A stretch of 64,000 bases of DNA from Patescibacteria group bacterium. GTDB taxonomy: Bacteria; Patescibacteriota; Minisyncoccia; Phycocordibacterales; WO2-35-19. Below the pieces are notes generated by a model. That model had not been told where the DNA came from. It worked only from the letters and a program-made list of their open reading frames with translations, and did no database searches. This document shows positions 5,704-60,352 of this stretch, piece by piece (the first letter of the stretch is position 1; each line of letters opens with the position of its first letter). A program made the translations under genes and the position numbers. Location: positions 218 through 64,217 of the forward strand of contig JBBTQO010000009.1 in assembly GCA_038065655.1 (NCBI GenBank). Direction: 5' to 3'.

Positions 5704-6096
5704 TCACAAAATTATATTTTCCATAAATTTGACTTTGGCTACTCGTCTTTCTTGATCTAAAAACACACAAGCCAAATCAAATTGCCATAGAGGTTCCTTC
5801 TTGTATTTCTCCAGTAAGTAGGTTTGGATGGCTCTCCTTAGTCTTTTAAGCTTCCATGGGTGCATATTATCTTCTGGCCGGTAGTTGTTTATCTCTTGCT
5901 CAAATCTTCCCCCATAGCTATTGCGACTAACAGTCTTAACTTCCACAAAATGAAGGACTTTGTCTTTTTCCATTATGATATCTATTTCTCCCCATTTCCT
6001 TCTATAATTCCGGCAAATTAAAATATAGCCTTTTTTTGAAAGGAAATTGGTAACGATGTTCTCCCCCATTTCTCCAGTTTTGTTATGTTTTGCCAT
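5704..6096 (-). CDS. yraN: YraN-family (UPF0102) predicted endonuclease
   Basis: 130 aa. GEMGENIVTNFLSKKGYILICRNYRRKWGEIDIIMEKDKVLHFVEVKT matches the conserved YraN pattern (GExxA...GY.IL.RN.R...GEIDII....LVFVEVK). Confidence 0.8.
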   Translation of the reverse strand: MAKHNKTGEMGENIVTNFLSKKGYILICRNYRRKWGEIDIIMEKDKVLHFVEVKTVSRNSYGGRFEQEINNYRPEDNMHPWKLKRLRRAIQTYLLEKYKKEPLWQFDLACVFLDQERRVAKVKFMENIIL

Positions 6097-8101: not shown

Positions 8102-8312
8102 AGATAGAGTTATCCACTTTTTGTCCTTTACATTATTTTTAAAAGACATAAAATTTCTATCAGACAGCTAATATTTTTTAATCGAACATAATCATTAGCA
8201 TTTGTTCTTTATAATCCGATGCATCGGATTGAAAGAAAGTTTGGTTAGACATAAGAATAGGTTATATATATTCTCACTATTTTATTTTTAAAATGGAATA
8301 TCATACGATTTC

Positions 8313-9967: not shown

Positions 9968-10912
9968 TTAACCTCTTTTATTATGAAATTTTTTGTGGAT
10001 GTCGCGGAGGTGTTTGTCGGTGACATGGGTGTAGATTTGGGTGGTGCCTATGTTGGCGTGGCCGAGTAGAGCTTGCACAGAGCGCAGGTCGGCGCCATTT
10101 GAGAGTAAGTCGGTAGCAAAAAGATGGCGCATAGTGTGAGGCGTGACTTTTTTTGATATACCAGCTTTAATTGCATAATGTTTTACTATCCTCTCCACTG
10201 ATCTACGAGTAATGGCCAATCCTTTGCCGCGAGATTCTTGGGCCTTGCTGTTTTTTGATAGTTGAACAAAGAGTGCATCGTCCATATCTTTTCTCTTGGC
10301 TAAATATTCCTTCAAAACTTTTTTAGCATAGTCTGATATGAAAACCACTCGGAGCTTTCTGCCTTTGCCCATAATGGAAAGTTCGTCTGTAGTGAGGTCT
10401 ATATCGCGTGTTAGGGAACAAAGTTCAGAAACACGCAATCCGGTGGAAAAAAGTAATTCTAATATTGCCTTATCACGAAGTGCGTCAAGGCTATTATCTT
10501 TTGGGGCGTCTAACAATCTTTTTAATTCAGCGTTAGTGATGAGATCTAGAGATCTTTCAGGGGTTCTGGCCAGTTCAATCCTTTCCGAGGGCATAGACTT
10601 GATTTCTTGCCTAGCGAGATATTTTAGAAATGCCCTAATAGAGATTAAATAATAATTTTGGGTTTTTTTTGACATTGTTTCCCCTGTTTTTCTGTTGTTC
10701 CCTGTGACTTGGCGATTTAACCAAAGGCGGAATTCACGCACTACACTATCGGTAATGTCTTCAGGTTGTTTTGCTCCTGTTTGCTTTAAAAATACATCGA
10801 GATAATGCTGGTAATTCTCAACAGTTTTCAGAGCGCGACCCTTTTCAATCTCCACATATTCCAAAAATTGCCTTTTTAGTTGTTCTAGATCTTGTGCCAT
10901 ATATAACCCCAC
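9968..10912 (-). CDS. tyrosine recombinase XerC/XerD family
   Basis: 314 aa. C-terminal HTMRHLFATDLLSNGADLRSVQALLGHANIGTTQIYTHV carries the R..H..R..Y catalytic signature. Confidence 0.85.
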   Translation of the reverse strand: MGLYMAQDLEQLKRQFLEYVEIEKGRALKTVENYQHYLDVFLKQTGAKQPEDITDSVVREFRLWLNRQVTGNNRKTGETMSKKTQNYYLISIRAFLKYLARQEIKSMPSERIELARTPERSLDLITNAELKRLLDAPKDNSLDALRDKAILELLFSTGLRVSELCSLTRDIDLTTDELSIMGKGRKLRVVFISDYAKKVLKEYLAKRKDMDDALFVQLSKNSKAQESRGKGLAITRRSVERIVKHYAIKAGISKKVTPHTMRHLFATDLLSNGADLRSVQALLGHANIGTTQIYTHVTDKHLRDIHKKFHNKRG

Positions 10913-12483: not shown

Positions 12484-12545
12484 CCCATCACCTTCGCAAG
12501 GTGAGGGGCAACTTGCCGTGGGGCAAGTGGGGTGGGGTCGGAAGG
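12484..12545 (-). repeat. Family-C double-hairpin element (reverse orientation) in the rpsO leader
   Basis: Its reverse complement reads ccttccgaccccacccca-cttgccccacggcaag-ttgcccctcaccttgcgaaggtgatggg. Compare 56930..56990. Confidence 0.55.
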
Positions 12546-12639
12546 AAATTTGAAGATGGTCTTTTGGGGTAGGATATTCAAAGATCATCTTCGGGAAAGA
12601 GGATTTGCAAAAAAATGGGGTTTATGCTATCCTTTTGCC

Positions 12640-15348: not shown

Positions 15349-15684
15349 ATGTATAACGACCAGAAACAAAAAGAAAGAAGAAGAGAGCTTCGCAAAAATC
15401 AAACCGAAGCAGAAAAGATTTTGTGGCAGAAAATTAGAAATAGACAAATTAACAATTTTAAATTTCATCGTCAATATAGTGCTGGACCATATATTCTCGA
15501 TTTTTTCTGTCCAGAGATTCGTTTGGTAATAGAATTGGACGGTGAACAACATAAAGATACCAAAGAGTATGACAAAGAAAGAGAATTATTTCTGAAAGAC
15601 AAAGATATTAACGTGATCAGATTTTGGAATAATGAAGTTTTGGAGAATATTGAGAATATTTTAAATATCATTAGAGCATGCTAG
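15349..15684 (+). CDS. DUF559 endonuclease-domain protein (Vsr-like fold)
   Basis: 111 aa. ...ILWQKIRNRQINNFKFHRQYSAGPYILDFFCPEIRLVIELDGEQH...VIRFWNNEV is the classic DUF559 pattern. Confidence 0.75.
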   Translation: MYNDQKQKERRRELRKNQTEAEKILWQKIRNRQINNFKFHRQYSAGPYILDFFCPEIRLVIELDGEQHKDTKEYDKERELFLKDKDINVIRFWNNEVLENIENILNIIRAC

Positions 15685-17659: not shown

Positions 17660-17701
17660 TAACCTCACCCCCCAACCCCTCTCCTAGAAGCAGGAGAGGG
17701 G
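17660..17701 (+). repeat. Family-E element right after the pilC stop
   Basis: taacctcaccccccaa-cccctctcct-agaagc-aggagagggg. Confidence 0.5.
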
Positions 17702-21615: not shown

Positions 21616-21652
21616 CCCACCCCCCAACCCCTCCCTTAAATTAAGGGAGGGG
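21613..21652 (+). repeat. Family-E element starting with the stop codon
   Basis: TAAcccaccccccaa-cccctccctt-aaatt-aagggagggg. Confidence 0.5.
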
Positions 21653-21660: not shown

Positions 21661-21698
21661 GCCCTCTCTTGTTGTAAGAGAGGGTTGGGTGAGTTATT
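21661..21698 (+). repeat. Family-A element
   Basis: gccctctctt-gttgt-aagagaggg-ttgggtgagttatt, 8 nt before the tpiA ATG. Confidence 0.6.
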
Positions 21699-21706
21699 AT
21701 ATAAAT

Positions 21707-22477
21707 ATGAAGCATCGCAATCTAGTAGTGGCTAATTGGAAGATGAGTCCAGAGACTTTAGAAGAGGCCAAAAAAATATTTAATGGCGCTAGGTTGGCAG
21801 CTAAAGGTTTAAAAAATACAGATGTAATTATTTGCCCACCTTTTCTATTTATTCAGCCACTTTTAAAATTGAAATATCCTAAAAATATGTTTTTGGGAGG
21901 GCAGAATATTTCGAGTGAAATCAAAGGTGCTTTTACGGGAGAAGTCAGCGCCTATATGGTAAAAAATTTAGGAGTCGGCTTTTCTATAATTGGTCATTCC
22001 GAAAGAAGGACGATGGGTGAGAGCAATGAAATAATTAGAAAAAAATTACAAATTGCTTTTGATGCCGATTTAACACCAATTTTTTGTATTGGTGAAAAAG
22101 AAAGAGACAAAGAAGGAAGCCATCTCAGTTTTATAAAAAATCAAATCAAAGAATGCTTAACTGGTTTACAGAAAAAACATTTGGTTGGCATCATTGTTGC
22201 CTACGAACCAATTTGGGCCATTGGCAAATCTTACAAAGAAGCAATGAGTGCTACTGACATTCACGAGACAGTTTTATTTATAAAAAAAATTATAAGCGAG
22301 CTTTTTGGTAAGGACATCGCTGATGGTTCTAAAATTCTTTACGGTGGCTCAGTGGAAGCAGAAAATGCTTATGAAATGGCCCATATTGGCAATATTGAAG
22401 GTTTCCTAGTGGGCCACGCCTCACTCCGCCCAGAACAATTTTCTGCCGTCTTAAAATCGGTGGATATGAAGAGGTAA
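21707..22477 (+). CDS. tpiA: triosephosphate isomerase
   Basis: MKHRNLVVANWKM...AYEPIWAIGKS...GGSV are the TIM signatures. Confidence 0.9.
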   Translation: MKHRNLVVANWKMSPETLEEAKKIFNGARLAAKGLKNTDVIICPPFLFIQPLLKLKYPKNMFLGGQNISSEIKGAFTGEVSAYMVKNLGVGFSIIGHSERRTMGESNEIIRKKLQIAFDADLTPIFCIGEKERDKEGSHLSFIKNQIKECLTGLQKKHLVGIIVAYEPIWAIGKSYKEAMSATDIHETVLFIKKIISELFGKDIADGSKILYGGSVEAENAYEMAHIGNIEGFLVGHASLRPEQFSAVLKSVDMKR

Positions 22478-22535
22478 TTTCCCTTCCCAGAAGATGACCT
22501 TTGAAGACCCTGCCTCAAAAGGTCATCTTCAAATT
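22478..22535 (+). terminator. Family-B post-stop hairpin with conserved loop (after tpiA)
   Basis: tttcccttcccaGAAGATGACCTTTgaagaccctgcctcaAAAGGTCATCTTCaaatt. Confidence 0.6.
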
Positions 22536-22583: not shown

Positions 22584-22621
22584 ATACACAGATTTCAGAC
22601 GGTCGTCGCTAATCTGTGTAT
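22584..22621 (+). promoter_or_regulatory. 38-nt palindromic operator-like site (ATACACAG-N-GACGGTCGTC-N-CTGTGTAT), copy 3
   Basis: atacacagatttcagacggtcgtcgctaatctgtgtat overlaps the higB start. Confidence 0.55.
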
Positions 22622-22879
22622 GTAATAAAAAACAAAATTATTTCTTTAGTTGATGTTTTGATGGAAAATAATGGCTCGCTTGGAAACCTTGATTCAAAAA
22701 GTTTAAGAAAAGGACTTTTTGAACTAAGATTAATTGGTTCTGTTAATACAAGAATATTTTATTGTTTTCATAAAGACACAATCTATTTATTACACGCAAT
22801 AATTAAGAAAACTCAAAGAACACCAATAAGAGAAATTGAATTTGCTAGAAAAATGAAAAAGATAGTTGGACAATTATAA
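22616..22879 (+). CDS. HigB-like toxin (Gp49/DUF891-like)
   Basis: ...LRKGLFELRLIGSVNTRIFYCFHKDTIYLLHAIIKKTQRTPIREIEFARK matches Gp49-like killer proteins. Overlaps the downstream XRE antitoxin gene. The track start is a GTG inside a palindrome, so the true start may instead be Met at 22661. Confidence 0.65.
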   Translation: MYVIKNKIISLVDVLMENNGSLGNLDSKSLRKGLFELRLIGSVNTRIFYCFHKDTIYLLHAIIKKTQRTPIREIEFARKMKKIVGQL

Positions 22880-23195
22880 CGCATATGTTATCATAAACAA
22901 TATGGAAAAAACATATAAAAAAATAAAACTAATTTCTCATGAAGACTTCAAAAAAAAGCTTTTAAAGAAGCCATCTTTCCGTAAGTACTATGAAGAAACA
23001 AGTTTTGAAAGAGAAATTTTCAAGGCAATTATAAAGGCAAGAGCTCAAAAAGATCTTACCCAAAGAGAGCTAGCGGAAAAAATCGGTGTCAAACAATCAG
23101 CCTTGGCGCGTTTTGAATCTGGCAGAACCAACCCCACACTCGGTTTTCTTAAAAAAGTTGTTTCAGGATTAGGTTTGAATGTGACGGTAAAATAA
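22866..23195 (+). CDS. HigA-like XRE-family antitoxin
   Basis: ...LTQRELAEKIGVKQSALARFESGRTNPTLGFLKKVVSGLGLNV is an HTH_XRE domain. Confidence 0.7.
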   Translation: MDNYNAYVIINNMEKTYKKIKLISHEDFKKKLLKKPSFRKYYEETSFEREIFKAIIKARAQKDLTQRELAEKIGVKQSALARFESGRTNPTLGFLKKVVSGLGLNVTVK

Positions 23196-27303: not shown

Positions 27304-27924
27304 ATGAATATTTTTAATGATTCAAATAGTGCTCAAAAAAAGTTCCAAGGTAAAATTGCTGGTTCGAAAGGGGCTGGATATGCTGAAATTTTTTTGAATA
27401 AGGAAGTAGAGAAGTTTCTCAGGGAAAATATATCTGATAAAAATACAAAAATAATTATTTATACTGATGGTTCGTCGCGTGGTAATCCTGGGCCGGGTGG
27501 TTTTGGAGCGATTATTTTTAGTAGAGAAAAAGTTTTGGAAATTGGTGGTAGAGAAGAGCAAACAACAAATAATAGGATGGAAATGAAAGCGGCGATTGAA
27601 GCTCTGAAAATAATTCCAGAAAATTCTTTTGTTGAGTTGCATGCAGATTCTGAGTATTTAATAAAAGGTATTACGATTTGGATTAAAAATTGGCAGAAAA
27701 ATAATTGGCGCACTAAAGATAAGAGGGAAGTTTTAAACCGCGATTTGTGGGAAGAACTTTTAGCACAAACAGAAAATAAAAATATAGAATGGAAAAAAGT
27801 AGTGGGCCACTCAGGTCACGAGTTTAATGATCGTTGTGATGAGATTGCTACAAGTTTTGCCGATGGCTTGAATGTTGATTTTTATAATGGCTCAGAATCA
27901 GGGTATTTCTTGTTTCATCAATGA
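27304..27924 (+). CDS. rnhA: ribonuclease HI
   Basis: IIYTDGSSRGNPGPGGFGAII...TTNNRMEMKAAIEAL...HADSEYLIKGIT.WI.NWQKNNW...VGHSGHEFNDRCDEIA are the canonical RNase H motifs. Confidence 0.85.
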   Translation: MNIFNDSNSAQKKFQGKIAGSKGAGYAEIFLNKEVEKFLRENISDKNTKIIIYTDGSSRGNPGPGGFGAIIFSREKVLEIGGREEQTTNNRMEMKAAIEALKIIPENSFVELHADSEYLIKGITIWIKNWQKNNWRTKDKREVLNRDLWEELLAQTENKNIEWKKVVGHSGHEFNDRCDEIATSFADGLNVDFYNGSESGYFLFHQ

Positions 27925-29528
27925 TTGCTTTTGTCGTTTCATTTGTTATAGGAATCGTTTTTGAAAAAATTTTTGGTTTGGGTTGGAGCATCGCCTTGCT
28001 CATAATTTTAGTTTCAGTAACTTTAAGGGCAATCCTTTGGGGCAATTCTTCAAGAGTTGCCCTTGGGGAAGAGAGTCAAAGACGCCCTTTGAAAGTTGTT
28101 CCCAAAAGGGCGTCTTTGACTTTCTTTGCGATTAGTTTGGCTTTTTCTCTCGGAATTTTGAGAATGAATTTTGTTAGCACTTCTCCTGATACAAATCTTT
28201 ACAAACTTATCAGCCAAAAAATTTCTTTTGAGGCCACTATTTCCGATGAGCCCGATATAAGAGATACTTCGGTGCGTTACATAGTCAGACCAGACTTTTC
28301 TTTGGAATATGTTTCTGAATGCACGGATATTTTCTTGCTAGAAAATTCCTCGTGCTCGGCTCAGTCAGCCTCGCAAGGCATTCATAAACACATTCCCTCG
28401 AAAAGTCTTGTACTTTTGGTCGCAAATAGATATCCTGAATTTCAATATGGCGACAAAATAAAAGTTTCTGGTAAATTAGATTTGCCAAAAAATTTCGTAG
28501 CAGAAAATGGTACAGAATTTGATTACATTTCATATTTAGCCAAAGATAAAATTCACTTTTTGATTTATCGTCCTCAAATTGAAAAAATAGAGGGTTATGA
28601 TGGTAGCAAAATTATTACCTCACTCTATTTACTTAAAAATAAATTCATAGAAAAAATTTCAGCGGTAGTGCCCGAACCAAACGCCTCTCTTTTGGGAGGA
28701 GTTATTTTTGGCGTCAAACAATCCTTGGGCACAGATTTGTTGGATGATTTTAGAAAAGTGGGGCTGATTCATATTGTAGTTCTTTCTGGCTATAACATTA
28801 CAATTATTGCGGTTGGCATATTTTACCTTACTTCTTTCTTAGGTAGAAGAAAGTTAGGTTTTGTTATAGGCGCAGTTTCTATTTTACTTTTTGCTATTAT
28901 GGTGGGCCTTGGCGCCACTGTAATCCGAGCTTGCATTATGTCTCTTATTTCTATTTTGGCGGTTTATCTCGGTCGACCTTCAGACGCATTACGCTTCCTT
29001 TTTATTGCTGGGTTTTTAATGCTCCTTTGGAATCCTTTACTTCTTTTTTATGACCCATCCTTTCAACTTTCTTTTATGGCCACATTGGGATTAATTTTAT
29101 TTTCGCCTTTTATTTTTTCTTTTATCACTGAGCACAAGTTTGGAAAGTTTATTTCAATCAAATTTGGTTTAAGAGAAATAGTTTCCTCCACATTAGCTGT
29201 TCAATTTTTTGTCTTACCTTTACTCATCAAGATGTCAGGTTTCGTTTCTTTAATTTCATTTTTAGTTAATCCAATTGTTTTACCACTAGTGCCGTGGGCG
29301 ATGGCCTTTGGCGCTTTGACTGGCGCACTCGGAATATTTTCTCAAATGCTTTCTTGGCCGTTTGGTGTCATTTCCTATTTTATTTCTCAAATAATAATTT
29401 ATATCACCGAACTTTCCGCAAATATTCCTCTTGCCACTTTGCAAACCGGATCAATTTCAATCTGGCTAATTTTTGTTTGGTATGTGGGTTATGGAGTTTT
29501 GTATAAAAAATTGTCAGCAGAAAAATAG
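27921..29528 (+). CDS. comEC: ComEC/Rec2 competence channel (membrane domain only)
   Basis: 535 aa polytopic. LLGGVIFGVKQSLGTDLLDDFRKVGLIHIVVLSGYNITII is the ComEC 'Competence' domain core. No MBL domain in this ORF. Confidence 0.7.
   Translation: MIAFVVSFVIGIVFEKIFGLGWSIALLIILVSVTLRAILWGNSSRVALGEESQRRPLKVVPKRASLTFFAISLAFSLGILRMNFVSTSPDTNLYKLISQKISFEATISDEPDIRDTSVRYIVRPDFSLEYVSECTDIFLLENSSCSAQSASQGIHKHIPSKSLVLLVANRYPEFQYGDKIKVSGKLDLPKNFVAENGTEFDYISYLAKDKIHFLIYRPQIEKIEGYDGSKIITSLYLLKNKFIEKISAVVPEPNASLLGGVIFGVKQSLGTDLLDDFRKVGLIHIVVLSGYNITIIAVGIFYLTSFLGRRKLGFVIGAVSILLFAIMVGLGATVIRACIMSLISILAVYLGRPSDALRFLFIAGFLMLLWNPLLLFYDPSFQLSFMATLGLILFSPFIFSFITEHKFGKFISIKFGLREIVSSTLAVQFFVLPLLIKMSGFVSLISFLVNPIVLPLVPWAMAFGALTGALGIFSQMLSWPFGVISYFISQIIIYITELSANIPLATLQTGSISIWLIFVWYVGYGVLYKKLSAEK
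28332..28383 (+). repeat. ~52-nt repeat, copy 2 (inside comEC CDS)
   Basis: ttcttgctagaaaattcctcgtgctcggctcagtcagcctcgcaaggcattc. Confidence 0.5.
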
Positions 29529-29561
29529 CTTCTTTTGTTCGGTACATAAATTTTTGTTTCG

Positions 29562-29635
29562 TCAAAATGAAAATTTGCAAAAGTCCTCGGGTCACCTCTT
29601 GCAGGGCTCAACCAGATTTTTGAAATTTTATTTTG
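29562..29635 (+). repeat. Family-D nested-IR element
   Basis: tcaaaatgaaaatttgcaaaagtcctcgggtc...ccagatttttgaaattttattttg. Confidence 0.55.
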
Positions 29636-29646
29636 CTTCACAAAAA

Positions 29647-30243
29647 TTATATAACTTCTGTAAAATTCTGTTCAATAACTTGCCAATTCAAATTTTCAAA
29701 AAAATCTTCAATGTATTGTTTTTTACCACTTGGTTGATAATCAGCAACGAAGGCATGTTCCCACATATCCAAAGCTAGGATAGGGGAGCAATTTTGCAGT
29801 TGGCCGATATGTTGTTCATCTATCCAAGTGTTTAAAAGTCTTTTATCTTTTTTATCCCAATAAAGCATAGCCCAACCTATGCCACGAGTGGTTGCCAAAG
29901 ATTTGAAATATGATAGCCATTTATCAAACGAGCCAAATTCTTCTGTAATGACCTTTTTTAATCCACTCGCATCATCCAAATTTTTAGTACCACCGGAAAG
30001 TGATTCAAAATACACCTCATGATTTCGCATACCGTTATATTCAAAACCGAATCTTCTTTGGGTCTCAGCTATAATATAAACATTAGCTTCTAGGTTAGCA
30101 CTCATTTCTTCGATTTTTTCTAAAACCAGATTGGCATTTTTTACATACCCGGCATAAAGTTTTAAATGTTCTTCAATATTTTTTTCTGAAATACCTTTAA
30201 GTTTTGGAATATTAAACTTTTTTTCTTCGAATTTTTGTGCCAT
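29647..30243 (-). CDS. Fe/Mn superoxide dismutase family protein
   Basis: C-terminal ALDMWEHAFVADYQ...NWQVIEQNF is the SOD signature. The N-terminal HHxKHH box is degenerate (EEHLKLY). Confidence 0.6.
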   Translation of the reverse strand: MAQKFEEKKFNIPKLKGISEKNIEEHLKLYAGYVKNANLVLEKIEEMSANLEANVYIIAETQRRFGFEYNGMRNHEVYFESLSGGTKNLDDASGLKKVITEEFGSFDKWLSYFKSLATTRGIGWAMLYWDKKDKRLLNTWIDEQHIGQLQNCSPILALDMWEHAFVADYQPSGKKQYIEDFFENLNWQVIEQNFTEVI

Positions 30244-30285
30244 ATTTTATTGGTTAATGTTATTTGACTATTATATCATTAAAAT

Positions 30286-31203
30286 ATGAGCTTTAAATTA
30301 AAAATTAGGCTGATTATTCTAACTATCTTATTATTTCTAACTATCTTTTCATTTTATATTGCCTGGCGAGAGGAGGACAGAGGTATTTTGACAGTGGTTT
30401 TTTTAAACATTGGTCAGGGCGACGCTACCTTTATTGAAGGGCCAAATGGTAACCAAATTCTTATAGACGGCGGTCCGGGTAAGTCGGTACTTAGAGAATT
30501 GTCTAAAGTTATGCCTTTTTATGACCGAAGTATCGATGTTGTTTTGGCAACTCACGCTGACCAAGACCATGTTGGTGGATTGCCGGATGTTTTAAAAAAG
30601 TATCAAGTAAATATTTTTATGGAAACAGGAGTGGCCGGAGAATCTTCTTCTTATGAAGAACTTGAAAAAATAGTTGGAGAAAAAGAAAGTGCGAGTAGGA
30701 TTAAAAAAATATTAGTCAGAAAGGGTATGGAGATTGATTTGGGAGACGGGGCTATTTTGCAAATTCTTTTTCCCGATAGAGATCCCTCGGGCATGGAGAC
30801 CAATACCGCCTCAATTGTGGCCAGACTTGTTTATGGTGAAAATGAATTCCTACTTACTGGTGACTCGCCACAAGTTATTGAAAAATATCTGGTTTCTTTA
30901 GGTAGTCGAGAGTGTCAAGGGCAACCCTTGAAATGCTCCGGTCCCAAAGGGTTGCCCTTGACACTCGAAAGTGACGTGCTCAAAGCTGGGCATCATGGCT
31001 CAAAAACCTCAACCGGCGCAGTCTTCGTTTCAGCTGTTTCTCCCCAATATGTCGTCATTTCTGCAGGTAAAGACAATCGATACGGCCACCCCAATCAAGA
31101 AGTATTAGATATTGTTTCCAATTTTGGAGCCAAAATATTTCGCACCGACGAGTCGGGCCGCATTATATTCCAAAGCGATGGAGTAAATTTGGAAGTTAAA
31201 TAA
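30286..31203 (+). CDS. MBL-fold metallo-hydrolase, ComEC C-terminal-domain-like, carrying an in-frame palindromic insertion
   Basis: N-terminal TM. HADQDHVGGL (HxHxDH). ...VLKAGHHGSKTS. Residues ...RECQGQPLKCSGPKGLPLTLES are encoded by the 57-nt palindrome at 30910..30966. Confidence 0.7.
   Translation: MSFKLKIRLIILTILLFLTIFSFYIAWREEDRGILTVVFLNIGQGDATFIEGPNGNQILIDGGPGKSVLRELSKVMPFYDRSIDVVLATHADQDHVGGLPDVLKKYQVNIFMETGVAGESSSYEELEKIVGEKESASRIKKILVRKGMEIDLGDGAILQILFPDRDPSGMETNTASIVARLVYGENEFLLTGDSPQVIEKYLVSLGSRECQGQPLKCSGPKGLPLTLESDVLKAGHHGSKTSTGAVFVSAVSPQYVVISAGKDNRYGHPNQEVLDIVSNFGAKIFRTDESGRIIFQSDGVNLEVK
30910..30966 (+). mobile_element. in-frame palindromic mini-insertion element, copy 1
   Basis: Perfect 20-bp arms GAGTGTCAAGGGCAACCCTT / AAGGGTTGCCCTTGACACTC around the loop gaaatgctccggtccca. 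57 nt = 19 codons, inside a CDS. Confidence 0.7.
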
Positions 31204-36629: not shown

Positions 36630-36667
36630 ATACACAGATTACTGACAACCGTCAGTGATGTGTGTAT
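36630..36667 (+). promoter_or_regulatory. 38-nt palindromic operator-like site, copy 1 (overlaps a TATAAT box and abuts the paaX-like start)
   Basis: atacacagattactgacaaccgtcagtgatgtgtgtat. -10 TATAAT at 36668..36673, ATG at 36681. Confidence 0.55.
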
Positions 36668-36680
36668 TATAATAAAAGCA

Positions 36681-37260: not shown

Positions 37261-37298
37261 ATACACAGGTTATTGACGGTCGTCGATGATGTGTGTAT
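37261..37298 (+). promoter_or_regulatory. 38-nt palindromic operator-like site, copy 2 (immediately after the paaX-like stop)
   Basis: atacacaggttattgacggtcgtcgatgatgtgtgtat. Confidence 0.5.
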
Positions 37299-37777: not shown

Positions 37778-39931
37778 ATGAATCGTGATTATCCGTTAGA
37801 GAGAGTTAGAAATTTTGGAATTATAGCCCATATTGATGCCGGCAAGACTACTGTTTCCGAGCGTATTTTGTTTTACACCGGAAGCCAGCACAAGATTGGA
37901 GAAGTGCATGAAGGGGAGACTACCACTGACTGGATGGAACAGGAGCGGGAACGAGGAATTACTATCACCGCGGCCGCCATTACTTGTTTTTGGGCACCAA
38001 CATATTTGGGTGAAGAAAGCAGAAAAAACAAAGATAATAAATATCGTTTTAATATTATTGATACTCCAGGGCACATTGATTTTACAGTGGAAGTGAAAAG
38101 ATCAATGCGTGTTTTGGATGCGGCTGTTTGTGTGTTTGATGGCGTAGCCGGAGTTGAGCCTCAGAGCGAAACCAACTGGCGCTATGCCGAGGAAGCCGCT
38201 GTGCCTCGTCTTTGTTTTATAAATAAATTAGATCGAATTGGCGCTAACTTTGAAAAATCATATAAATCAATTTTGGTCAGACTTTCCAAAAAGGCCGTTC
38301 GTATGCAAATACCGGTTGGTGAGGAAGATAAACACGAAGGACAAATTGATTTGTTAAAAATGAAAGCTTACAAATTTGAAGGTCACTTGGGCGGTAATGT
38401 GATTGAGACAGAAGTTCCTGAGAATTTGAAGGAGGAAGCCTTAAAATACCGAGCTGAATTGGTGGAAAGAATTGTAGAGAACAATGATGAAATGATGAAT
38501 AAATATTTAGCTGGGGAGGAAATTGCTGTCGCCGATTTGAAAAAGATTTTGCGCGAAGCTGTTATTGCTAATAAAATTTTCCCAGTTTTTTGTGGTTCTG
38601 CTTTGAAAAATAAAGGAGTGCAGTTGGTTTTGGATGCCGTCGTTGATTATCTACCTAGTCCACTCGATATGCCGGCTATAAAAGGTATTGATCCGAGAAC
38701 TGGCGAAGAGGTAGAAAGACACCCTTCTGACGAAGAACCATTTTCTGCTTTGGCTTTCAAACTTCAAGCCGATCCTTTCGTGGGACAACTCACATTCTTC
38801 CGGGTTTATTCTGGGACAATTGAGTCAGGCTCTTATATATATAATGCTTCAACTGGTGACAAAGAAAGACTTGGTCGTATCGTGCGATTACAGGCCGATA
38901 AGAGAGAAGAAGTGAAAAAAGTTTTTGCCGGAGAAATTGCCGCCGCTGTCGGTTTGAAAGATACCAAAACTTCAAACACATTTTGTGATGAAAATAATCC
39001 TATTATTTTGGAGACCATCATTTTCCCAGAACCAGTTATTTCACTTCGCATTGAACCTAAGACCAAAGCTGACCAAGAGAGAATGGGTATGGCCCTGCAT
39101 CGCCTTTCAGATGAAGACCCAACCTTTAAAGTTAAAGGTGATCCAGAAACAGGAGAAACTGTTATTTCTGGAATGGGCGAATTACATTTGGATATTATTG
39201 TTGATCGTATGAAAAGAGAATTTAATGTGGAAGCTAATGTCGGTGCGCCACAAGTAGCGTACAAAGAGACTATTACCGGTACGGCCGAAGCCGAAACTAA
39301 ATACATCAAACAGACTGGTGGAAAAGGTCAATACGGTCACGTCAAACTCAATATTAAACCTTTGGAGGCAGAAGTGGAAAATAAGAAAAAACAGAAAAAC
39401 ATTCATCGCGAAGAAGGTTTTGAATTCGTTGATTCCATCAAAGGTGGTGTGATTCCTTCTGAATTTATCCCTGCGGTTGAAAAGGGTGTCAAAGAGGCGA
39501 TGGAGCGAGGTATCGTGGCTGGCTACAAAATGGTGGATATTTCTTGTGAACTTACCTTTGGTTCTTACCATGATGTGGACTCATCTGAAATCGCTTACAA
39601 GATTGCCGCATCGCAAGCATTCCAAGAGGCGGCCAAAAAAGCTAAACCAGTGATTCTTGAACCCATTATGAAATTGGAAGTGGTGGTGCCGGAACAGTTT
39701 ATGGGTGATATTACGGGCCACCTTTCATCTAAACGAGGTTTGATTGAAGGTATGGATGATAGAGCTGGACTCAAAGTGGTTAAAGCTAAAGTGCCTCTTT
39801 CAGAATTATTTGGTTATGTTACAACACTTCGCTCTATGACTGAGGGTCGTGGTAATGCTAACATTGAATTTGATCACTATGCTATCGTGCCGGCTAACAT
39901 AGCTTTGGCTATTGTGGAAGCGAGGAAATAA
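37778..39931 (+). CDS. fusA: elongation factor G
   Basis: NFGIIAHIDAGKTTVSERILFYTG, DTPGHIDF, NKLD. 717 aa. Confidence 0.95.
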   Translation: MNRDYPLERVRNFGIIAHIDAGKTTVSERILFYTGSQHKIGEVHEGETTTDWMEQERERGITITAAAITCFWAPTYLGEESRKNKDNKYRFNIIDTPGHIDFTVEVKRSMRVLDAAVCVFDGVAGVEPQSETNWRYAEEAAVPRLCFINKLDRIGANFEKSYKSILVRLSKKAVRMQIPVGEEDKHEGQIDLLKMKAYKFEGHLGGNVIETEVPENLKEEALKYRAELVERIVENNDEMMNKYLAGEEIAVADLKKILREAVIANKIFPVFCGSALKNKGVQLVLDAVVDYLPSPLDMPAIKGIDPRTGEEVERHPSDEEPFSALAFKLQADPFVGQLTFFRVYSGTIESGSYIYNASTGDKERLGRIVRLQADKREEVKKVFAGEIAAAVGLKDTKTSNTFCDENNPIILETIIFPEPVISLRIEPKTKADQERMGMALHRLSDEDPTFKVKGDPETGETVISGMGELHLDIIVDRMKREFNVEANVGAPQVAYKETITGTAEAETKYIKQTGGKGQYGHVKLNIKPLEAEVENKKKQKNIHREEGFEFVDSIKGGVIPSEFIPAVEKGVKEAMERGIVAGYKMVDISCELTFGSYHDVDSSEIAYKIAASQAFQEAAKKAKPVILEPIMKLEVVVPEQFMGDITGHLSSKRGLIEGMDDRAGLKVVKAKVPLSELFGYVTTLRSMTEGRGNANIEFDHYAIVPANIALAIVEARK

Positions 39932-49377: not shown

Positions 49378-50058
49378 ATGAAACGACTACAAAAGGAAAA
49401 AGAAGAAGCAATAAGAATGAGATTAGGGGGGATGAGTTATTCTCAAATAAAATCAAAAATTAAAGTAAGCAAGAGCTCTCTTAGTGCTTGGCTTGCTAAA
49501 TATCCGTTGTCTGATGAGAGAATTAGAGAATTAAGGGATGTTAATCCTAGAAGAATAGAAAATTACAGAAAAACCATGGCACTCAAATGGCAAGCCAAAC
49601 TAAATGTTGCTCTTGAGAAAGCCAAAAAAGACATTAAACATCTTTCAAAAAGAGAATTATTTATTTTAGGTTTTGCACTATATTGGGCAGAAGGTGGGAA
49701 GACTCGAAAGAGCACATTACATTTTGGAAACACTGACCCCGACATGTTGAAAGTTTTTGTTAAATGGCTTATATTATTGGGAGTTCCTAAGGAGAGACTA
49801 AGGGTCAAACTTCATATGTATAAAGATATGGACAAGGAGAAAACTATTTCTTTTTGGGAAAAAACACTTGGAATTAAATCCGATCAATTTGGAAAACCGT
49901 ATGTCAAAAATTCTTATCTGACGGGGTTGACTTACAAACATGGTTTTGGACACGGTACATGTAATATTGTTTATCATAATACTGAATTGGCAAGCTATGT
50001 TTTGATGGGAATAAGGCATATTATAAATGATTTGATTGATTCAAAAATGCGCGCTTAG
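49378..50058 (+). CDS. HTH + LAGLIDADG-like domain protein
   Basis: 226 aa. N-terminal HTH (GGMSYSQIKSKIKVSKSSLSAWL). LGFALYWAEGGK resembles a LAGLIDADG catalytic motif followed by NTDPDMLKVFVKWLILLGV. Paralog of the partial gene at 1..611. Its last 10 nt overlap the tRNA-Ile(TAT) gene. Confidence 0.5.
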   Translation: MKRLQKEKEEAIRMRLGGMSYSQIKSKIKVSKSSLSAWLAKYPLSDERIRELRDVNPRRIENYRKTMALKWQAKLNVALEKAKKDIKHLSKRELFILGFALYWAEGGKTRKSTLHFGNTDPDMLKVFVKWLILLGVPKERLRVKLHMYKDMDKEKTISFWEKTLGIKSDQFGKPYVKNSYLTGLTYKHGFGHGTCNIVYHNTELASYVLMGIRHIINDLIDSKMRA

Positions 50059-50121
50059 CTCAGTTGGTAGAGCATTCCGCTTATACCGGAACGGTCGGGG
50101 GTTCGAGACCCTCAGCGCGCA
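50049..50121 (+). tRNA. tRNA with anticodon TAT (AUA-decoding tRNA-Ile-like)
   Basis: Acceptor GCGCGCT/AGCGCGC, D-arm GCTC-AGTTGGTA-GAGC, anticodon stem TTCCG/CGGAA with loop CTTATAC, T-loop TTCGAGA, discriminator A. Followed by a terminator at 50135..50160. Confidence 0.65.
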
Positions 50122-50134
50122 CAGCGTTAAGAAA

Positions 50135-50275: not shown

Positions 50276-52471
50276 TCACTCCATATGCACTGTGGTTTTT
50301 TCTGCCAGGTGCTTCGCGAGGAGGGGGTAATTTTTTAATTCAAAATCTTTTTCAATTAAAGTATGAGCTTCCAAACGAGCAGCTTCAACCATTTTGATAT
50401 TGCGGAGCGCTTCCATGGCAAGGTCAGAGACACCCCACTGTTTGGCACCAGCCAAATCACCACTGCCTCTTTGTTGTAAGTCGGCTTCAGCTAACTCAAA
50501 ACCATTATGGGCGGTGGTAAAAGATTTTAGGCGAGAGATAGTTTTTTGGGATTTACTATCGGCGAAAACAAAACAATATGGTTTGTAGGAACTGCGAAGA
50601 ACTCTACCCCGAAGCTGATGCAGTTGAGCTAAGCCAAACCTCTCGGCGTTTTCTATTATGATAACCGTGGCATTGGGTATATTTACTCCCACCTCCACTA
50701 CAGAGGTGGCCACCAAAATATCAATTTTTTTATCCTTGAAATCTCTCATCACATTTTCTTTTTCCATCGGTTTTAATTTACCGGTGATAGCCCCCACTTT
50801 AAATTCAGGGAAAACCTTTTTTTGCAGTCTTTCAGTTTCAGATTTTACTGATTTGGCATTGATAGTGTTTTCTTTATCTGGATCCGGGTCATTTACTCGC
50901 GGGCAAACAACAAAAACTTGCCGACCTGTTTTTAATTCTTCCCTTACTCTTTCATAAATTTCTTCTCTTTGGTGAGGCAAAACAATTTTTGTTTCCGGAA
51001 TTTGTCTGCCAGCCGGTAATTCGTCTAGCAGAGATAAATCCAAATCGCCAAAAATTGTTAAGGCCAGTGTGCGGGGGATGGGGGTAGCGGTCATACTAAG
51101 TAAATGTGGAGCAATATCATGCTTACGACGTAGTTGCATTCTTTGTTTAACACCAAAACGGTGTTGCTCGTCTATGATTATTAGAGCTAAATTTTTAAAT
51201 TGGACGGTTTTTTGAATTAAGGCATGAGTGCCAATCAAAATAGGTATTTCACCATTAGCCACCCATTTTAGAAGTTGTGGTTTAGATATTTTGGTCCAAG
51301 CCAAGGTCGGACCTTTGGGACCGGAGCAGTTTAAGGTCCGACCTTGGCTTGTCTTGGAAGGAAATTTTTTTGCGCCACTGCCGGTAATGAGGCCGACCGA
51401 TAATTTATATTTGGCAAAATATTCTATAAAAGATTCAAAATGTTGCTCGGCCAAAATTTCGGTGGGTGCCATATAGGCAACTTGCAAATTGCCGTATTCT
51501 CTATTTAGAGGAGCGGTAGTTACAGTGGCGAAACTGGCAGTGGCGGCCACCGCTGTTTTACCAGAACCAACATCTCCTTCAAGCAGGCGTGACATTGGGT
51601 GGCCAGTTTTAAAATCGCTCAGTATTACTTCAATTGATTTATTTTGAGCGCTAGTTAAGGGGAAGGGGAATGTATCTATAAAATCTTTTATTTCTTTGTC
51701 TTTTTTTGAAATTAAAAAAGATTTTTCTTTTTGGGCGATATATTTTTCTTTCTGGCGGTCAAGCTGAATAAAAAATATTTCCTCAAAAGCAAATCTTTTT
51801 CTGGCTATTTCGGCGTCTTCTTTTTTGCGTGGAGCATGTATCCAAATGAGAGAGGTTTTGAGTGATGGTAAATTATATTTTTTTAAAATTTCTAGTGGAA
51901 TGGGGTCTATCAAATTGTCTAAAAACTCGGAAGAAAATATTTTTTGGATGGCATGATAAATCCAATTGGTAGAAATACTGCGGCTTTCCGAATAAACGGG
52001 GGAGAGGTTATGATTGTCTTCGCCGGTAAACAAAGAGCCGCTGGTTCCCTCGGGTATTTCTGACACTTTTTCTATTTTTGGATTAGAAAAATAGAGCTCT
52101 CCCTTTCTTTCTGAAATTTTTCCTTCAATCCTCACCAGTGATCCTTCAAAATACATTTTGGCTATGTAAGGCTGAGAAAACCAAATAATTTTAACTTTGC
52201 CAGTAGTGTCTTCTATCTCTGCCGTTGAAATGGCTACTCTGGATTTAAAAGTTTTGGCTGTTTTTAATTTAGAAATTCTACCAAAGACAACGGCATTTTC
52301 CCCGACGTTTAAAAATTCTATCGCTTTTACATCTCCCGCTTCTCCGTATCTGGTGGGGAAATGTCTCAATAAATCTTCGGTTGTTTTGAGACGCATTTTA
52401 GCCAACGCTTTTTTTTGAAAAGGAGAAAGTCTAAAAATTTGTTCAAGCGGAGTATCTGTTTGAATTTTCAT
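50276..52471 (-). CDS. recG: ATP-dependent DNA helicase RecG (with in-frame palindromic insertion)
   Basis: Wedge, helicase motifs (GDVGSGKT, DEQHRFG) and C-terminal domain. ...SQGRTLNCSGPKGPTLAW... is encoded by the palindrome at 51295..51349. Confidence 0.9.
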   Translation of the reverse strand: MKIQTDTPLEQIFRLSPFQKKALAKMRLKTTEDLLRHFPTRYGEAGDVKAIEFLNVGENAVVFGRISKLKTAKTFKSRVAISTAEIEDTTGKVKIIWFSQPYIAKMYFEGSLVRIEGKISERKGELYFSNPKIEKVSEIPEGTSGSLFTGEDNHNLSPVYSESRSISTNWIYHAIQKIFSSEFLDNLIDPIPLEILKKYNLPSLKTSLIWIHAPRKKEDAEIARKRFAFEEIFFIQLDRQKEKYIAQKEKSFLISKKDKEIKDFIDTFPFPLTSAQNKSIEVILSDFKTGHPMSRLLEGDVGSGKTAVAATASFATVTTAPLNREYGNLQVAYMAPTEILAEQHFESFIEYFAKYKLSVGLITGSGAKKFPSKTSQGRTLNCSGPKGPTLAWTKISKPQLLKWVANGEIPILIGTHALIQKTVQFKNLALIIIDEQHRFGVKQRMQLRRKHDIAPHLLSMTATPIPRTLALTIFGDLDLSLLDELPAGRQIPETKIVLPHQREEIYERVREELKTGRQVFVVCPRVNDPDPDKENTINAKSVKSETERLQKKVFPEFKVGAITGKLKPMEKENVMRDFKDKKIDILVATSVVEVGVNIPNATVIIIENAERFGLAQLHQLRGRVLRSSYKPYCFVFADSKSQKTISRLKSFTTAHNGFELAEADLQQRGSGDLAGAKQWGVSDLAMEALRNIKMVEAARLEAHTLIEKDFELKNYPLLAKHLAEKTTVHME
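51295..51349 (-). mobile_element. in-frame palindromic mini-insertion element, copy 2
   Basis: Perfect 19-bp arms CAAGCCAAGGTCGGACCTT / AAGGTCCGACCTTGGCTTG around the loop tgggaccggagcagttt. This loop is the reverse complement of copy 1's loop, i.e. it is the same on the coding strand. Confidence 0.7.
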
Positions 52472-52473: not shown

Positions 52474-52734
52474 CTATTGGGGCGCTATTTCATTTAGAGT
52501 GCCGTCTTCAAATATGGCATCTGGTGGAATGGGACAGTCCTCAAATTCACAATTTGGGCCAGTGCGACCGACATAACTGCCATCTGGACAAAGTTTGGCC
52601 TCCATTGTACAAGCTACCGATGGGGTATCATTGGGATTTTTGTATTCTATTGGATCTGGGTTATAAATATAAAGCAGGCCTCCGAGAATGAAGACGACGA
52701 TGATAAATATAAATACAAAAATTTTGTTGTTCAT
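52474..52734 (-). CDS. small membrane-anchored Cys-rich protein
   Basis: MNNKIFVFIFIIVVFILGGLLYIY (TM) followed by a C...C...C...C ectodomain. The longer track ORF would overlap the tRNA-Ser. Confidence 0.45.
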   Translation of the reverse strand: MNNKIFVFIFIIVVFILGGLLYIYNPDPIEYKNPNDTPSVACTMEAKLCPDGSYVGRTGPNCEFEDCPIPPDAIFEDGTLNEIAPQ

Positions 52735-52735
52735 C

Positions 52736-52827
52736 TGGCGGAGGGGGAGGGATTCGAACCCTCGGTGCCTTTTAAAGGGCACGCATCTTTAGCAAAGATG
52801 CACGATAGACCACTCTGACACCCCTCC
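52736..52827 (-). tRNA. tRNA-Ser (anticodon GCT), CCA encoded
   Basis: Minus strand: GGAGGGG...anticodon stem CATCT/AGATG with loop TTGCTAA, long variable arm, T-loop TTCGAAT, acceptor CCCCTCC, G, then CCA. Confidence 0.8.
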
Positions 52828-52915
52828 AACGAATTTAGATTAGCATATTTATTATGTTGACTCCAGAAGTTATATTTGTTAGTCTATATTGGCCCGAAAG
52901 GGCATTTTAATAGAT

Positions 52916-53101
52916 ATGGCAAAAACTTCAGTTATAGCAAGGTCTTTAAAGAAGCCGAAATTTAGCACTCGGATCGTTAGACGATGCTTCAAATGCGGCC
53001 GAGGCAGAGCATATATGGGAGATTTCGGTCTCTGCAGGATATGTTTTAGGGAACTAGCCAATGAAGGGAGAATTCCGGGAGTTAAGAAATCATCTTGGTA
53101 A
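52916..53101 (+). CDS. rpsN: 30S ribosomal protein S14 type Z (zinc-binding)
   Basis: [61 protein letters not shown]. Confidence 0.9.
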
Positions 53102-53164
53102 GTCCCTCGACTTCGCTCGGGATAAATCGAGTGGGGAATAAAAGAGATACTGCCTCGAAAAAAC

Positions 53165-53557
53165 ATGAACGATCCAATAGGAGATTTTATAATAAGAATT
53201 AAAAATGCTGGGAATGTAGGCAAAGAAAGTATTTCGCTGCCTTTTTCTAAAGTTAAATTAGCCATTGCTGAATTACTTTCGGCTAAGGGTTATATTGGCG
53301 CAGTCAGCCAAAAGAGCAAAGGCAATGCTAAATATTTAAATGTAGTTTTGCTTTATACCGAAAATAGAAGTCCAGTGATTTCAGGCGTCAAAAGAATATC
53401 AAAACCTTCCAGACGTTTATACGAAAAAGCCAAAAGTATAAAGAGATTTCGTCGAGGTTTTGGTTTATCAGTTTTCTCTACTCCCAAAGGCATTATGGCA
53501 GATGTGGATGCTAAGAAAGAAAATTTAGGAGGAGAATTTTTGTTTAATATATGGTAG
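53165..53557 (+). CDS. rpsH: 30S ribosomal protein S8
   Basis: MNDPIGDFIIRIKNA...GEFLFNIW. Confidence 0.9.
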   Translation: MNDPIGDFIIRIKNAGNVGKESISLPFSKVKLAIAELLSAKGYIGAVSQKSKGNAKYLNVVLLYTENRSPVISGVKRISKPSRRLYEKAKSIKRFRRGFGLSVFSTPKGIMADVDAKKENLGGEFLFNIW

Positions 53558-56876: not shown

Positions 56877-56929
56877 TTTCCCAGAAGATGACCTTTGAAT
56901 ATCCTGCCCCAAAAGGTCATCTTCAAATT
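56877..56929 (+). terminator. Family-B post-stop hairpin (after secY)
   Basis: tttcccaGAAGATGACCTTTgaatatcctgccccaAAAGGTCATCTTCaaatt. Confidence 0.6.
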
Positions 56930-56990
56930 TTCCGACCCCACCCCATCCGACTTGCGCCGGATTGCCCCTCACCTTGCGAAGGTGAGGGAA
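56930..56990 (+). repeat. Family-C double-hairpin element
   Basis: ttccgaccccacccca-tccgacttgcgccggat-tgcccctcaccttgcgaaggtgagggaag. Confidence 0.55.
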
Positions 56991-60107: not shown

Positions 60108-60352
60108 AATTTGGATATTTATGGACGGATACATGGACTTTAAAATAAGTGCGAATTAGATTATAATTACTACAGGGTTACTTGGATATTTTCTAACTTG
60201 CAAATATTCAGGGAGGCTAACTTTCCCCGCACCAAATTTTGGTGCGGGGTCGAGGCCACCCACCTAATTTTTTTCAATTAGGGAATTATCCCAGGTAGCC
60301 CTACATAGAAATCCCAGCGGAAGCGAGGGATTTTTATGTTATTATTATTTTT

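Follow-up and report, generated by a model that had tools for sequence, protein, structure and literature searches.

Small palindromic repeats are dispersed over the 64-kb window analysed here (the whole stretch of 64,000 nucleotides, nt, from contig JBBTQO010000009.1 of assembly GCA_038065655.1), which belongs to a metagenome-assembled genome (MAG) of a groundwater Patescibacteria whose relatives are annotated as Parcubacteria, Zambryskibacteria or Paceibacterota. These hairpins are probably lineage-specific, dispersed miniature palindromic repeats, i.e., selfish non-autonomous DNA of the type of the repetitive extragenic palindromic (REP) sequences, their REPIN doublets and the Rickettsia palindromic elements (RPEs), filtered by translational tolerance. 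The family is restricted to a lineage, its copies are present or absent at orthologous sites, and the same unit recurs in unrelated genes and genomes. Moreover, copies can be nested, their stems covary, their spacers exist in both flip and flop orientations, genic copies are read through, and some members resemble terminators. No description of such elements in Patescibacteria or other bacteria of the candidate phyla radiation (CPR) was found in full-text searches.

Two Perfect Palindromes are Read in Frame in an MBL-Fold Gene and in recG

The genic copies and their hosts are the following, the ComEC/Rec2 N-terminal gene being called ComEC-N hereafter.

30286..31203, + strand: host gene for an MBL-fold metallo-hydrolase (PF00753/PF12706), the ComEC C-terminal domain as its own gene
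30910..30966, + strand: subfamily-A palindrome, 57 nt or 19 codons, in frame in the MBL-fold gene
50276..52471, - strand: host gene recG (match to 1GM5, E 4e-123)
51297..51351, - strand: subfamily-B palindrome, in frame in recG
27921..29528, + strand: host gene for the N-terminal part of ComEC/Rec2 (DUF4131 and Competence domains in orthologs)
28069..28126, + strand: third in-frame copy, in ComEC-N; perfect core 28074-28121, arms AGTCAAAGACGCCCTTT, spacer GAAAGTTGTTCCCA
28022..28067, - strand: fourth in-frame copy, degenerate, in ComEC-N; 40.2 bits, E 6e-9

The palindrome of the MBL gene consists of two 20-nt arms (30910-30929 and 30947-30966; arm GAGTGTCAAGGGCAACCCTT) that are 100% complementary and enclose a 17-nt spacer, GAAATGCTCCGGTCCCA. 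In recG, two 19-nt arms (51297-51315 and 51333-51351), also 100% complementary, flank a 17-nt spacer that reads AAACTGCTCCGGTCCCA on the coding (minus) strand; the unit itself, AGCCAAGGTCGGACCTT-AAACTGCTCCGGTCCCA-AAGGTCCGACCTTGGCT, measures 51 nt or 17 codons, and its flanks extend the perfect pairing to 19 bp. Compared on their coding strands, the two spacers agree at 15 of 17 positions. The encoded peptides are ..ECQGQPLKCSGPKGLPLTL.. in the MBL protein and ..SQGRTLNCSGPKGPTLA.. in RecG, and both host open reading frames (ORFs) are intact. The MBL protein is a 100% match to MEK7669297.1, and the ComEC-N protein matches MEK7669295.1 exactly.

The preliminary description of this DNA, which was limited to these two sites, had reported perfect 19- to 20-bp inverted repeats around a 17-nt loop, read in frame in both genes. 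Both points are confirmed by the complementarity of the arms (20/20 and 19/19) and by the uninterrupted ORFs 30286-31203 and 50276-52471. Its assertion that the stems differ completely was in error, as the stems agree at 11 of 19 aligned positions and both are built on the scaffold CAAGG-N5-CCTT; rather than being unrelated and variable, the arms share this scaffold and are subfamily-specific. Nor is the loop fixed: between orthologs the spacer changes faster than the arms, and it is also found inverted.

Perfect stems of at least 13 bp occur 25 times in the window against a mean of 0.08 in 100 surrogates, which were first-order Markov versions of the window and whose longest perfect stem was 15 bp. 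Since surrogate stems are both shorter and much rarer, the palindromes are not there by chance. As RNA, the MBL copy folds at -41.1 kcal/mol (z -8.4) and the recG copy at -38.7 kcal/mol (z -7.3).

Eight Copies, Half of Them Intergenic

The family was searched with a scan for CCTT-loop-AAGG hairpins and then with a covariance model, R1, derived from 18 copies (alignment A2). This model recovers eight copies in the window, four genic (an adjacent pair in ComEC-N and single copies in the MBL gene and recG) and four intergenic. It matches the MBL copy at 30914-30962 (71.9 bits, E 1e-18) and the recG copy at 51300-51348 on the minus strand (70.5 bits). The third in-frame copy is matched at 28075-28120 with 57.5 bits, encodes ..SQRRPLKVVPKRASLT.. 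and is absent from the orthologous loci L084, L085 and L089 (loci of related genomes carry L numbers throughout). Immediately upstream of it, the degenerate copy at 28022..28067 has an oppositely oriented spacer, encodes ..LRAILWGNSSRVALG.. and is likewise absent from orthologs. The two copies first described are therefore real, though they represent two members of an eight-copy family, half of which is intergenic. The intergenic copies all belong to a variant designated type 2.

22487..22533, + strand: intergenic type-2 copy; arms GAAGATGACCTTT, spacer GAAGACCCTGCCTCA; 55.2 bits
39940..39986, + strand: intergenic type-2 copy, AGGGTGACCCTT-GAAGATCCTGCCCCA-AAGGGTCATCCT; 56.5 bits
56881..56989, + strand: composite module headed by an intergenic type-2 copy (56881-56927); 58.9 bits
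12484..12595, - strand: degenerate type-2 copy (12549-12595) with composite module; 45.4 bits

Three of these copies start 10-20 nt past stop codons: the first begins about 10 nt past that of the triose-phosphate isomerase gene tpiA (21689-22477), the second lies directly 3' of the fusA stop codon (gene 37778-39931), and the copy at 56881-56927 follows secY (55593-56864), the element 56881..56989 being unchanged in three further assemblies of this organism. The module at 12484..12595 occupies a divergent intergenic region upstream of rpsO.

The unit measures 45-75 bp and its arms follow the scaffold CAARG-N5-CYTTG, itself a small imperfect palindrome. Once normalised, the alignment reads (outer extension)-CAARG-N5-CYTT / GAAnTGCyCCnGyCCCA / AARG-N5'-CYTTG-(outer extension), the outer extension being GAGTGT, AGC or GAAGAT in some copies. 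The N5 segment differs by subfamily (GCAAC, TCGGA, ACGAC, ACGTT, GGCAC, ATGAC and others) and is always complementary between arms. The central spacer is asymmetric, spans 14-18 nt and has the consensus GAAnTGCyCCnGyCCCA; intergenic type-2 copies combine the arms GARGATGACCYTT with the spacer GAAGATCCTGCCCCA. In the stem, 92.7% of the cells of the alignment are paired and 10 of 16 pairs show compensatory double changes, whereas in 500 shuffles the covariation score, the count of doubly changed cells and the percentage of pairing always stayed below those observed. Nearly all of these pairs are Watson-Crick, G-U wobbles being rare.

Type-2 hairpins also head a composite module of approximately 110-130 nt, in which they are followed by TTCCGACCCCACCCC, a small variable hairpin and GCCCCTCACC-TTGCGAA-GGTGAGGG. 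The module was seen five times in the window and its relatives, two of these in the window, with a C-rich stretch after the type-2 hairpin and a last hairpin GCCCCTCACC-TTGCGAA-GGTGAGGGG. Other members have the layout of intrinsic terminators, i.e., an A-run, the hairpin and a T-run, as found 4 nt past the nusA stop codon (L092, 6376-6421) and immediately after that of ndk (L087, 138-186), and the arms of these members recur in intragenic copies (L085, first MBL site). In the three post-gene copies of the window, the stem is followed by AAATT.. without a T-run directly after it. Intergenic copies past stop codons resemble, and probably act as, terminators or 3'-end stabilisers.

The final hairpin of the composite module belongs to a second hairpin family, CCCCTC(A/T)CC, a 7-8-nt loop and GG(T/A)GAGGGG, which is intergenic, has an A-rich rather than T-rich tail and is conserved across all close relatives. 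Its sites are 12484-12508, 17676-17701, 21628-21652, 56965-56989 and 60225-60249 in the window, and it also occurs in L083, L084, L003 and L005.

Filled and Empty Sites in Orthologous Genes

Of 120 MBL homologs with 64-100% identity, 44 show only a 4-aa linker at the insertion point, and 54 carry palindrome-type peptides of at least 12 aa at that loop. The DNA of the loop is of subfamily A in the window, L083 and L084, with related variants in L085 and L003; a type-2 arm is read in another frame in L004, and L089 carries subfamily B with its spacer inverted. L005 has only a short loop-less palindrome and L006 is empty. A second site in the same gene is filled only in L084 and L085. As for RecG, 87 of 121 orthologs have a short NKEK-type linker, i.e., an empty site, and 18 contain the palindrome. 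The filled alleles are scattered in the neighbour-joining tree, and all share the junctions ..A/AGCCAA...TTGGCT/TGG. Compared with the empty site of L086, the 51-nt unit replaces 12 nt (AATAAAGAAAAA, encoding NKEK), the junctions reading ..ACA/unit/TGGACC when filled and ..ATA/AATAAAGAAAAA/TGGACC when empty.

Occupancy also varies at the other sites. The ComEC-N gene of the window contains two copies; that of L083 has a single one, which is flipped, and those of L084, L085 and L089 are empty. Copies after tpiA, fusA and secY were found only in the window and in L083/L087. The tpiA-site copy is kept at the orthologous place in L083 and is absent from L084, L085 and L089, where the next gene starts within 2-5 nt; the fusA-site copy has an ortholog in L083 (18079-18125), and L084 has a different hairpin there.

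These comparisons uphold the core of the preliminary description, namely a small, translationally tolerated, RPE-like palindromic element inserted in frame: empty orthologs exist for the MBL gene as well as for recG (NKEK), and the inserted peptides fall in permissive loops. It had named orthologs carrying the peptide without palindromic DNA as evidence to the contrary; none was found, every ortholog with the peptide having palindromic DNA.

Arms and host genes have diverged to different extents. Between the MBL genes of the window and L083, the arms are identical (40/40), the spacer matches at 14 of 17 positions and the flanks are 75-77% identical; between the recG genes of the window and L087, the corresponding values are 34/34, 13/17 and 80-87%. 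As the arms are invariant while the flanks diverge, the arms either change far more slowly than the gene around them or arrived more recently. The rate of drift of the spacer is close to that of the gene. Two strain variants of the 305-aa MBL protein (P0001 and P0246) differ only by S218P, which lies in the spacer (TCC/CCC, 30937-30939); this single data point hints at a mutational hot spot in the single-stranded loop.

The same protein loops host other inserts. In about 11 of 121 RecG orthologs, including L091 (11105-11176), the loop contains LRLRSGQAT (DNA CCTTCGACTGCGCTCAGGGCAGGC), which was rejected as a member of the family because its DNA is not a palindrome of this family. Like the palindrome, this insert is scattered in the RecG tree, which points to another short GC-rich repeat targeting the same permissive loop. 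An MBL ortholog of 47% identity (L021, 2962-3000) carries, in the same protein loop, an unrelated perfect palindrome consisting of GGAAGCGAGGCTTCC, 9 nt and GGAAGCCTCGCTTCC. Palindromes translated in frame may thus extend, among Patescibacteria, beyond the family described here.

One Unit Recurs in Unrelated Genes and Genomes

A 51-nt unit, AGCCAARGTCGGACYTT..TTGGCT, is found in recG (window, L087 and L088), in the MBL gene (L089) and in ComEC-N (L083). Its presence in three unrelated genes implies that the arms are part of the moving unit and do not derive from the target. In L090, one element lies within the spacer of another. Furthermore, a MAG labelled Saccharibacteria (CAYQIR01), which shows no other DNA similarity to the window, carries in frame in folD (L001) a copy that is 88.5% identical over 61 nt, with its spacer in the opposite sense and another frame read, as well as three further copies in 16 kb. 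The spacer of L002 is identical to that of recG in the window. A spacer consensus common to subfamilies and to unrelated genomes fits copies made from conserved sources and subsequently decaying.

With the covariance model, seven matches were obtained in 43 kb of the closest relative. More distant Patescibacteria, represented by 755 kb of loci with the same MBL gene, gave a single weak one. A scan of 185,579 species genomes for the exact pattern returned one other genome, the pattern being probably too strict to reflect the true distribution. Protein-level searches were uninformative for a census of host proteins: a 73-aa concatenated peptide query retrieved one candidate, and a 31-aa segment of the window compared with 1.84 billion representatives gave four matches, of which three (P0243-P0245) are repetitive proteins without the element and the fourth (P0242; 5,994 aa) has no single matched stretch. 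No copy matched Rfam 15, whether at the gathering threshold or at E<=1.

Several possible origins and carriers were rejected. A phage origin found no support, as neither the search of IMG/VR for the pattern of spacer and stem ends nor blastn of the element against 50,697 phage records gave any match. The presence of ComEC among the hosts raised the possibility of a DNA-uptake sequence; no strongly over-represented 8-11-mer fits the element, and eight copies in 64 kb are far too sparse. Pfam scans of 30 ORFs of the window revealed only a XerC/D-type integrase (9968-10912), a UPF0102/NERD nuclease-like gene (5704-6096) and a DUF559 endonuclease-like gene (15349-15684), none of which is linked to the repeats, and they were not retained as mobilisers.

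Spacer Inversion and Translation

The recG gene of L088 has the same arms as that of the window, with the spacer TGGGACTGGGGCAGTTC in place of the AAACTGCTCCGGTCCCA-like spacers of the window and L087. This spacer agrees with that of the window at 1 of 17 positions directly and at 14 of 17 as its reverse complement. The flipped-type peptide FGTGAVQ occurs in nine MBL and three RecG orthologs. Because the arms are symmetric, inversion in place and re-insertion in the opposite orientation are indistinguishable; because the spacer occurs in both orientations, its sense in mRNA is not essential. A rule drawn from the first six copies, according to which orientation follows transcription, was abandoned in view of flipped copies in ComEC-N (window 28022, and L083), recG (L088), the MBL gene (L089) and folD (L001). 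A replication-strand bias, as expected for IS200/IS605-like hairpin elements, was also rejected: GC skew is positive throughout the window, i.e., there is one replication direction, and five spacers are oriented plus and three minus, so that there is no strict bias.

Every genic copy keeps its ORF intact. Four of the six frame and orientation combinations of the element are free of stop codons and at least three are used in nature, from which it follows that conservation acts on nucleotides and not on the peptide. The motif xCSGPKG, first described as the peptide encoded by the loop, is present; it is just one of the at least three reading frames in use. In an AlphaFold2 model of the MBL protein (mean predicted local distance difference test score, pLDDT, 85.9), values below 50 are found only at residues 209-223, which correspond to the insert, and 167-170. 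The insert peptide is thus predicted to lie in a low-confidence, permissive loop. In RecG, residues 368-391, which contain the insert, have no counterpart in the solved Thermotoga RecG (1GM5), whose residues 456 and 457 directly follow each other in the alignment. The surface-loop location that the preliminary description suggested testing is in line with both results.

Proposed Mechanism and Alternative Explanations

If the hairpins are selfish miniature repeats, as we favour, new copies would reach new sites through an activity acting on their hairpin or cruciform form. Copying to new sites is suggested by the empty and filled orthologs, the occurrence of one unit in unrelated genes, the nested copy and the sharing between unrelated genomes. 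In genomes that are approximately 90% coding, insertions would persist only just past stop codons or in permissive surface loops of proteins, where they would survive if their length is a multiple of three and free of stops, the ribosome then reading through; selection would remove all others. The palindrome would be kept perfect by template switching at the hairpin or cruciform and by recombination between arms, a change in one arm being copied to the other, and the spacer could invert during such processes within the palindrome. A process of this kind is established for quasi-palindromes in Escherichia coli. The perfect Watson-Crick covariation, the slow evolution of the arms and the flip/flop spacers argue for such maintenance at the DNA level. 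The enzyme that makes the copies would be encoded outside the window.

Several points weigh against this scenario. No target-site duplication is seen between filled and empty recG sites, as would be expected of a miniature inverted-repeat transposable element (MITE), and the recG unit replaces 12 nt instead of being cleanly added. No transposase, HUH/Y1 protein, REP-associated tyrosine transposase (RAYT) or insertion sequence (IS) was detected in Pfam scans of 30 ORFs of the window, and no transposase or HUH/Y1 protein among the precomputed Pfam matches listed for genes on the loci of nine relatives. Four assemblies of the same organism show identical copies, and no transposition event was observed directly. 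Recurrence in the same loop could result from homologous recombination that exchanges alleles, or from gene conversion among copies, instead of new insertions, and the strong conservation of the arms could equally reflect selection for a host function. Finally, the spacer is in gene sense in all three post-gene intergenic copies and in three of the four genic copies of the window, a bias that is weakly suggestive of a role at the RNA level.

At the opposite end of the range, an active mini-element of an undescribed kind that transposes as a hairpin seems unlikely, yet it deserves consideration. The spacer and the CAARG/CYTTG ends would then constitute a recognition or nicking site for a single-stranded DNA enzyme, of HUH type or other, and the element would move between unrelated Patescibacteria lineages, repeatedly remodel the same loops of essential proteins and invert its spacer in place. 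It would also prefer hairpin tips as landing sites, which would explain the nested copy. In that event, one locus could encode two alternative peptides in frame (..KCSGPKG.. and ..FGTGAVQ..).

Selection for a host-functional structure would account for the covariation and perfect stems, for the high stability of the folds (-39 to -41 kcal/mol, z about -8) and for arms far better conserved than the genes around them. The structure could be an RNA hairpin serving as 3'-end stabiliser, terminator, pause or protein-binding site, or a DNA cruciform, intragenic copies regulating the ComEC and RecG mRNAs. The intergenic copies located 4-20 nt past stop codons, some with the A- and T-run flanks typical of terminators, the conserved composite modules of three hairpins and the spacer orientation, which mostly follows the gene in the window, speak for it as well. 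We nevertheless regard such a function as improbable, since both spacer orientations occur at one gene position, most orthologs have no hairpin, and the same loop receives different subfamilies with different arms. In addition, the stems pair nearly exclusively by Watson-Crick rules, G-U pairs being few, more distant relatives with these genes lack the family, apart from the one weak match, and no Rfam family matches. The regulatory or recombination site embedded in genes that the preliminary description offered as its alternative is likewise disfavoured. Passive spread of REP-like repeats by homologous recombination of whole alleles and gene conversion, with no transposition and no dedicated enzyme, fits the exact junctions shared by filled recG alleles that are scattered in the gene tree, and the lack of target-site duplications and of a transposase among the window ORFs scanned. 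These bacteria have competence genes, and alleles could pass between related strains. Within the window, moreover, the spacers of A and B are more alike (15/17) than each is to its ortholog (14/17 and 13/17). We consider it improbable, because it cannot account for how the 51-nt unit first came to three unrelated genes, for the nested copy or for the near-identical folD copy in a genome without other DNA similarity.

A local origin, in which template switching during replication or fold-back repair at short inverted microhomologies makes each palindrome where it stands, with neither common origin nor mobility, is very improbable. The unrelated perfect palindrome in the MBL loop of L021 (47% identical) and the short loop-less palindromes at the same place in L005 and L085 are compatible with it. 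It is largely refuted for this family by spacer and arm sequences common to different genes and unrelated genomes and by covariance-model E-values down to 1e-19, and it may still apply to the L021-type palindrome. Some amplification methods can produce palindromes. Nothing specific points to an artefact of assembly or sequencing, such as chimeric hairpin reads, and its probability is negligible, given that the same copies recur in assemblies made independently for different samples and projects (ENA, JGI, Logan and NCBI), frames are always preserved, and orthologous copies have diverged by substitutions.

Relationship to Known Repeats

RPEs are dispersed palindromic repeats found in frame in unrelated housekeeping genes, where they are read through and seen as selfish, other copies being intergenic (PMC10969869). 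The present repeats resemble them in being in frame and non-disrupting in the MBL gene, recG, ComEC-N (two copies) and folD of L001, with orthologs lacking the insert. However, whereas RPEs measure about 100-150 bp and have a conserved peptide per family, the units described here are 45-75 bp long, use at least three frames and have no conserved peptide; they are set apart from RPEs, by description, as near-perfect hairpins with an asymmetric spacer found in both orientations and a host among Patescibacteria.

REPINs are doublets of REP sequences that form hairpins, are mobilised by RAYTs, are extragenic, and have invariant ends and a poorly conserved spacer (PMC3116915). Here also, two inverted short repeats and a spacer form a hairpin, each arm is a REP-like palindrome, compensatory changes are common, several subfamilies coexist per genome, and mosaic intergenic modules are reminiscent of bacterial interspersed mosaic elements (BIMEs). 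In contrast with REPINs, four of the eight window copies are inside ORFs, the spacer consensus is common to subfamilies while the middle of the arm is variable, and no RAYT gene was seen in the window ORFs scanned or among the Pfam matches listed for the relatives' loci. The A-run, hairpin and T-run after the nusA and ndk stop codons recall the SPRITE repeats of Streptococcus pneumoniae and intrinsic terminators; however, in the intergenic copies of the window no T-run follows the stem directly, a terminator role is precluded for intragenic copies, and loops of 14-18 nt exceed the usual size in terminators. The preliminary description was right to recognise a selfish in-frame element. It missed the intergenic, terminator-like half of the family, which makes REP/REPIN and terminator-like repeats equally close analogues.

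Among organelle genomes, mobile GC-rich or double-hairpin elements are exemplified by the GC clusters of yeast mitochondria. Mitochondria of Nematomorpha contain perfect coding inverted repeats of up to 284 bp, both arms of which encode conserved protein regions (PMC6649704). Perfect inverted repeats in translated genes, maintained at the DNA level despite coding constraint, make the coding palindromes of Nematomorpha the nearest conceptual parallel, although here small inserts occupy non-conserved protein loops encoded by a bacterial chromosome. MITEs are small, non-autonomous, multi-copy elements with inverted repeats that sometimes form in-frame fusions (PMC10969869). The present repeats share their small size, non-autonomy, copy number and inverted repeats; unlike MITEs, they have no target-site duplication and no recognisable parent IS, are far below MITE size, and consist entirely of one hairpin instead of terminal inverted repeats around a core.

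Other Features of the Window

A third palindrome family, (T)ACACA(G/C)AT-N4-GACGGTCGTC-N4-AT(G/C)TGTGT, is present at 22584-22621, 36640-36670 and 37263-37296 of the window and at 15647-15692 of L005, with five two-strand pattern matches at the three window sites against 0 expected. It stands upstream of genes for an HTH (helix-turn-helix) protein and a PaaX-like protein and of fusA, and could be an operator or another repeat.

ComEC is split over 27921-31203 into the DUF4131 and Competence gene and the C-terminal MBL gene, between which a superoxide dismutase gene (29647-30243) lies on the opposite strand, an arrangement kept in all syntenic relatives. ComEC-N contains an extra insert of about 33 aa (28295-28395; DFSLEYVSECTDIFLLENSSCSAQSASQGIHKHIP) that is absent from four close orthologs and does not belong to the palindrome family. 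The longest ORF of the RNase H gene (27304-27924) adds about 46 aa at the N-terminus that four relatives lack; this extension could be a mis-called start or a lineage-specific addition.

Relatives encode a Gp49 (HigB-like) toxin and an HTH antitoxin between tpiA and pgk (L084, 2585-3229; L089, 2401-3055), where the window has the HTH gene only, the space being filled by the type-2 palindrome, TTCGCGACCGCGAA and the ACACA hairpin; the window coordinates for this toxin/HTH observation are 22866-23195 and 57022-57369. Between rpsH and recG, the closest relative (L087) carries a gene with a faint LAGLIDADG_3 match (7071-8114); the gene annotation of the window differs there, showing short unannotated ORFs (52474-53265). 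A tRNA-Ile gene with anticodon TAT, decoding AUA (50049-50122; ARAGORN), adjoins recG.

Significance

Genomes of Patescibacteria are about 1 Mb in size, gene-dense and thought to be streamlined. The hairpins described here are a miniature REPIN/RPE-like palindromic repeat in a phylum for which our full-text searches gave no earlier description of one. At roughly one copy per 8 kb, and with essential genes colonised, they indicate that selfish DNA persists even in streamlined genomes. They also explain odd low-complexity inserts of CPR proteins (QGxxL...KGxxL, FGTGAVQ), which can confuse alignment, annotation and structure prediction.

Presence or absence of copies, together with their flip/flop states, provides strain-level markers, and the occupied positions draw a natural map of the insertion-tolerant loops of RecG, ComEC and FolD. 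Moreover, the family offers a clean system in which to study how perfect palindromes persist inside coding DNA. If a dedicated enzyme were found, it would add a new hairpin-specific system of mobilisation.

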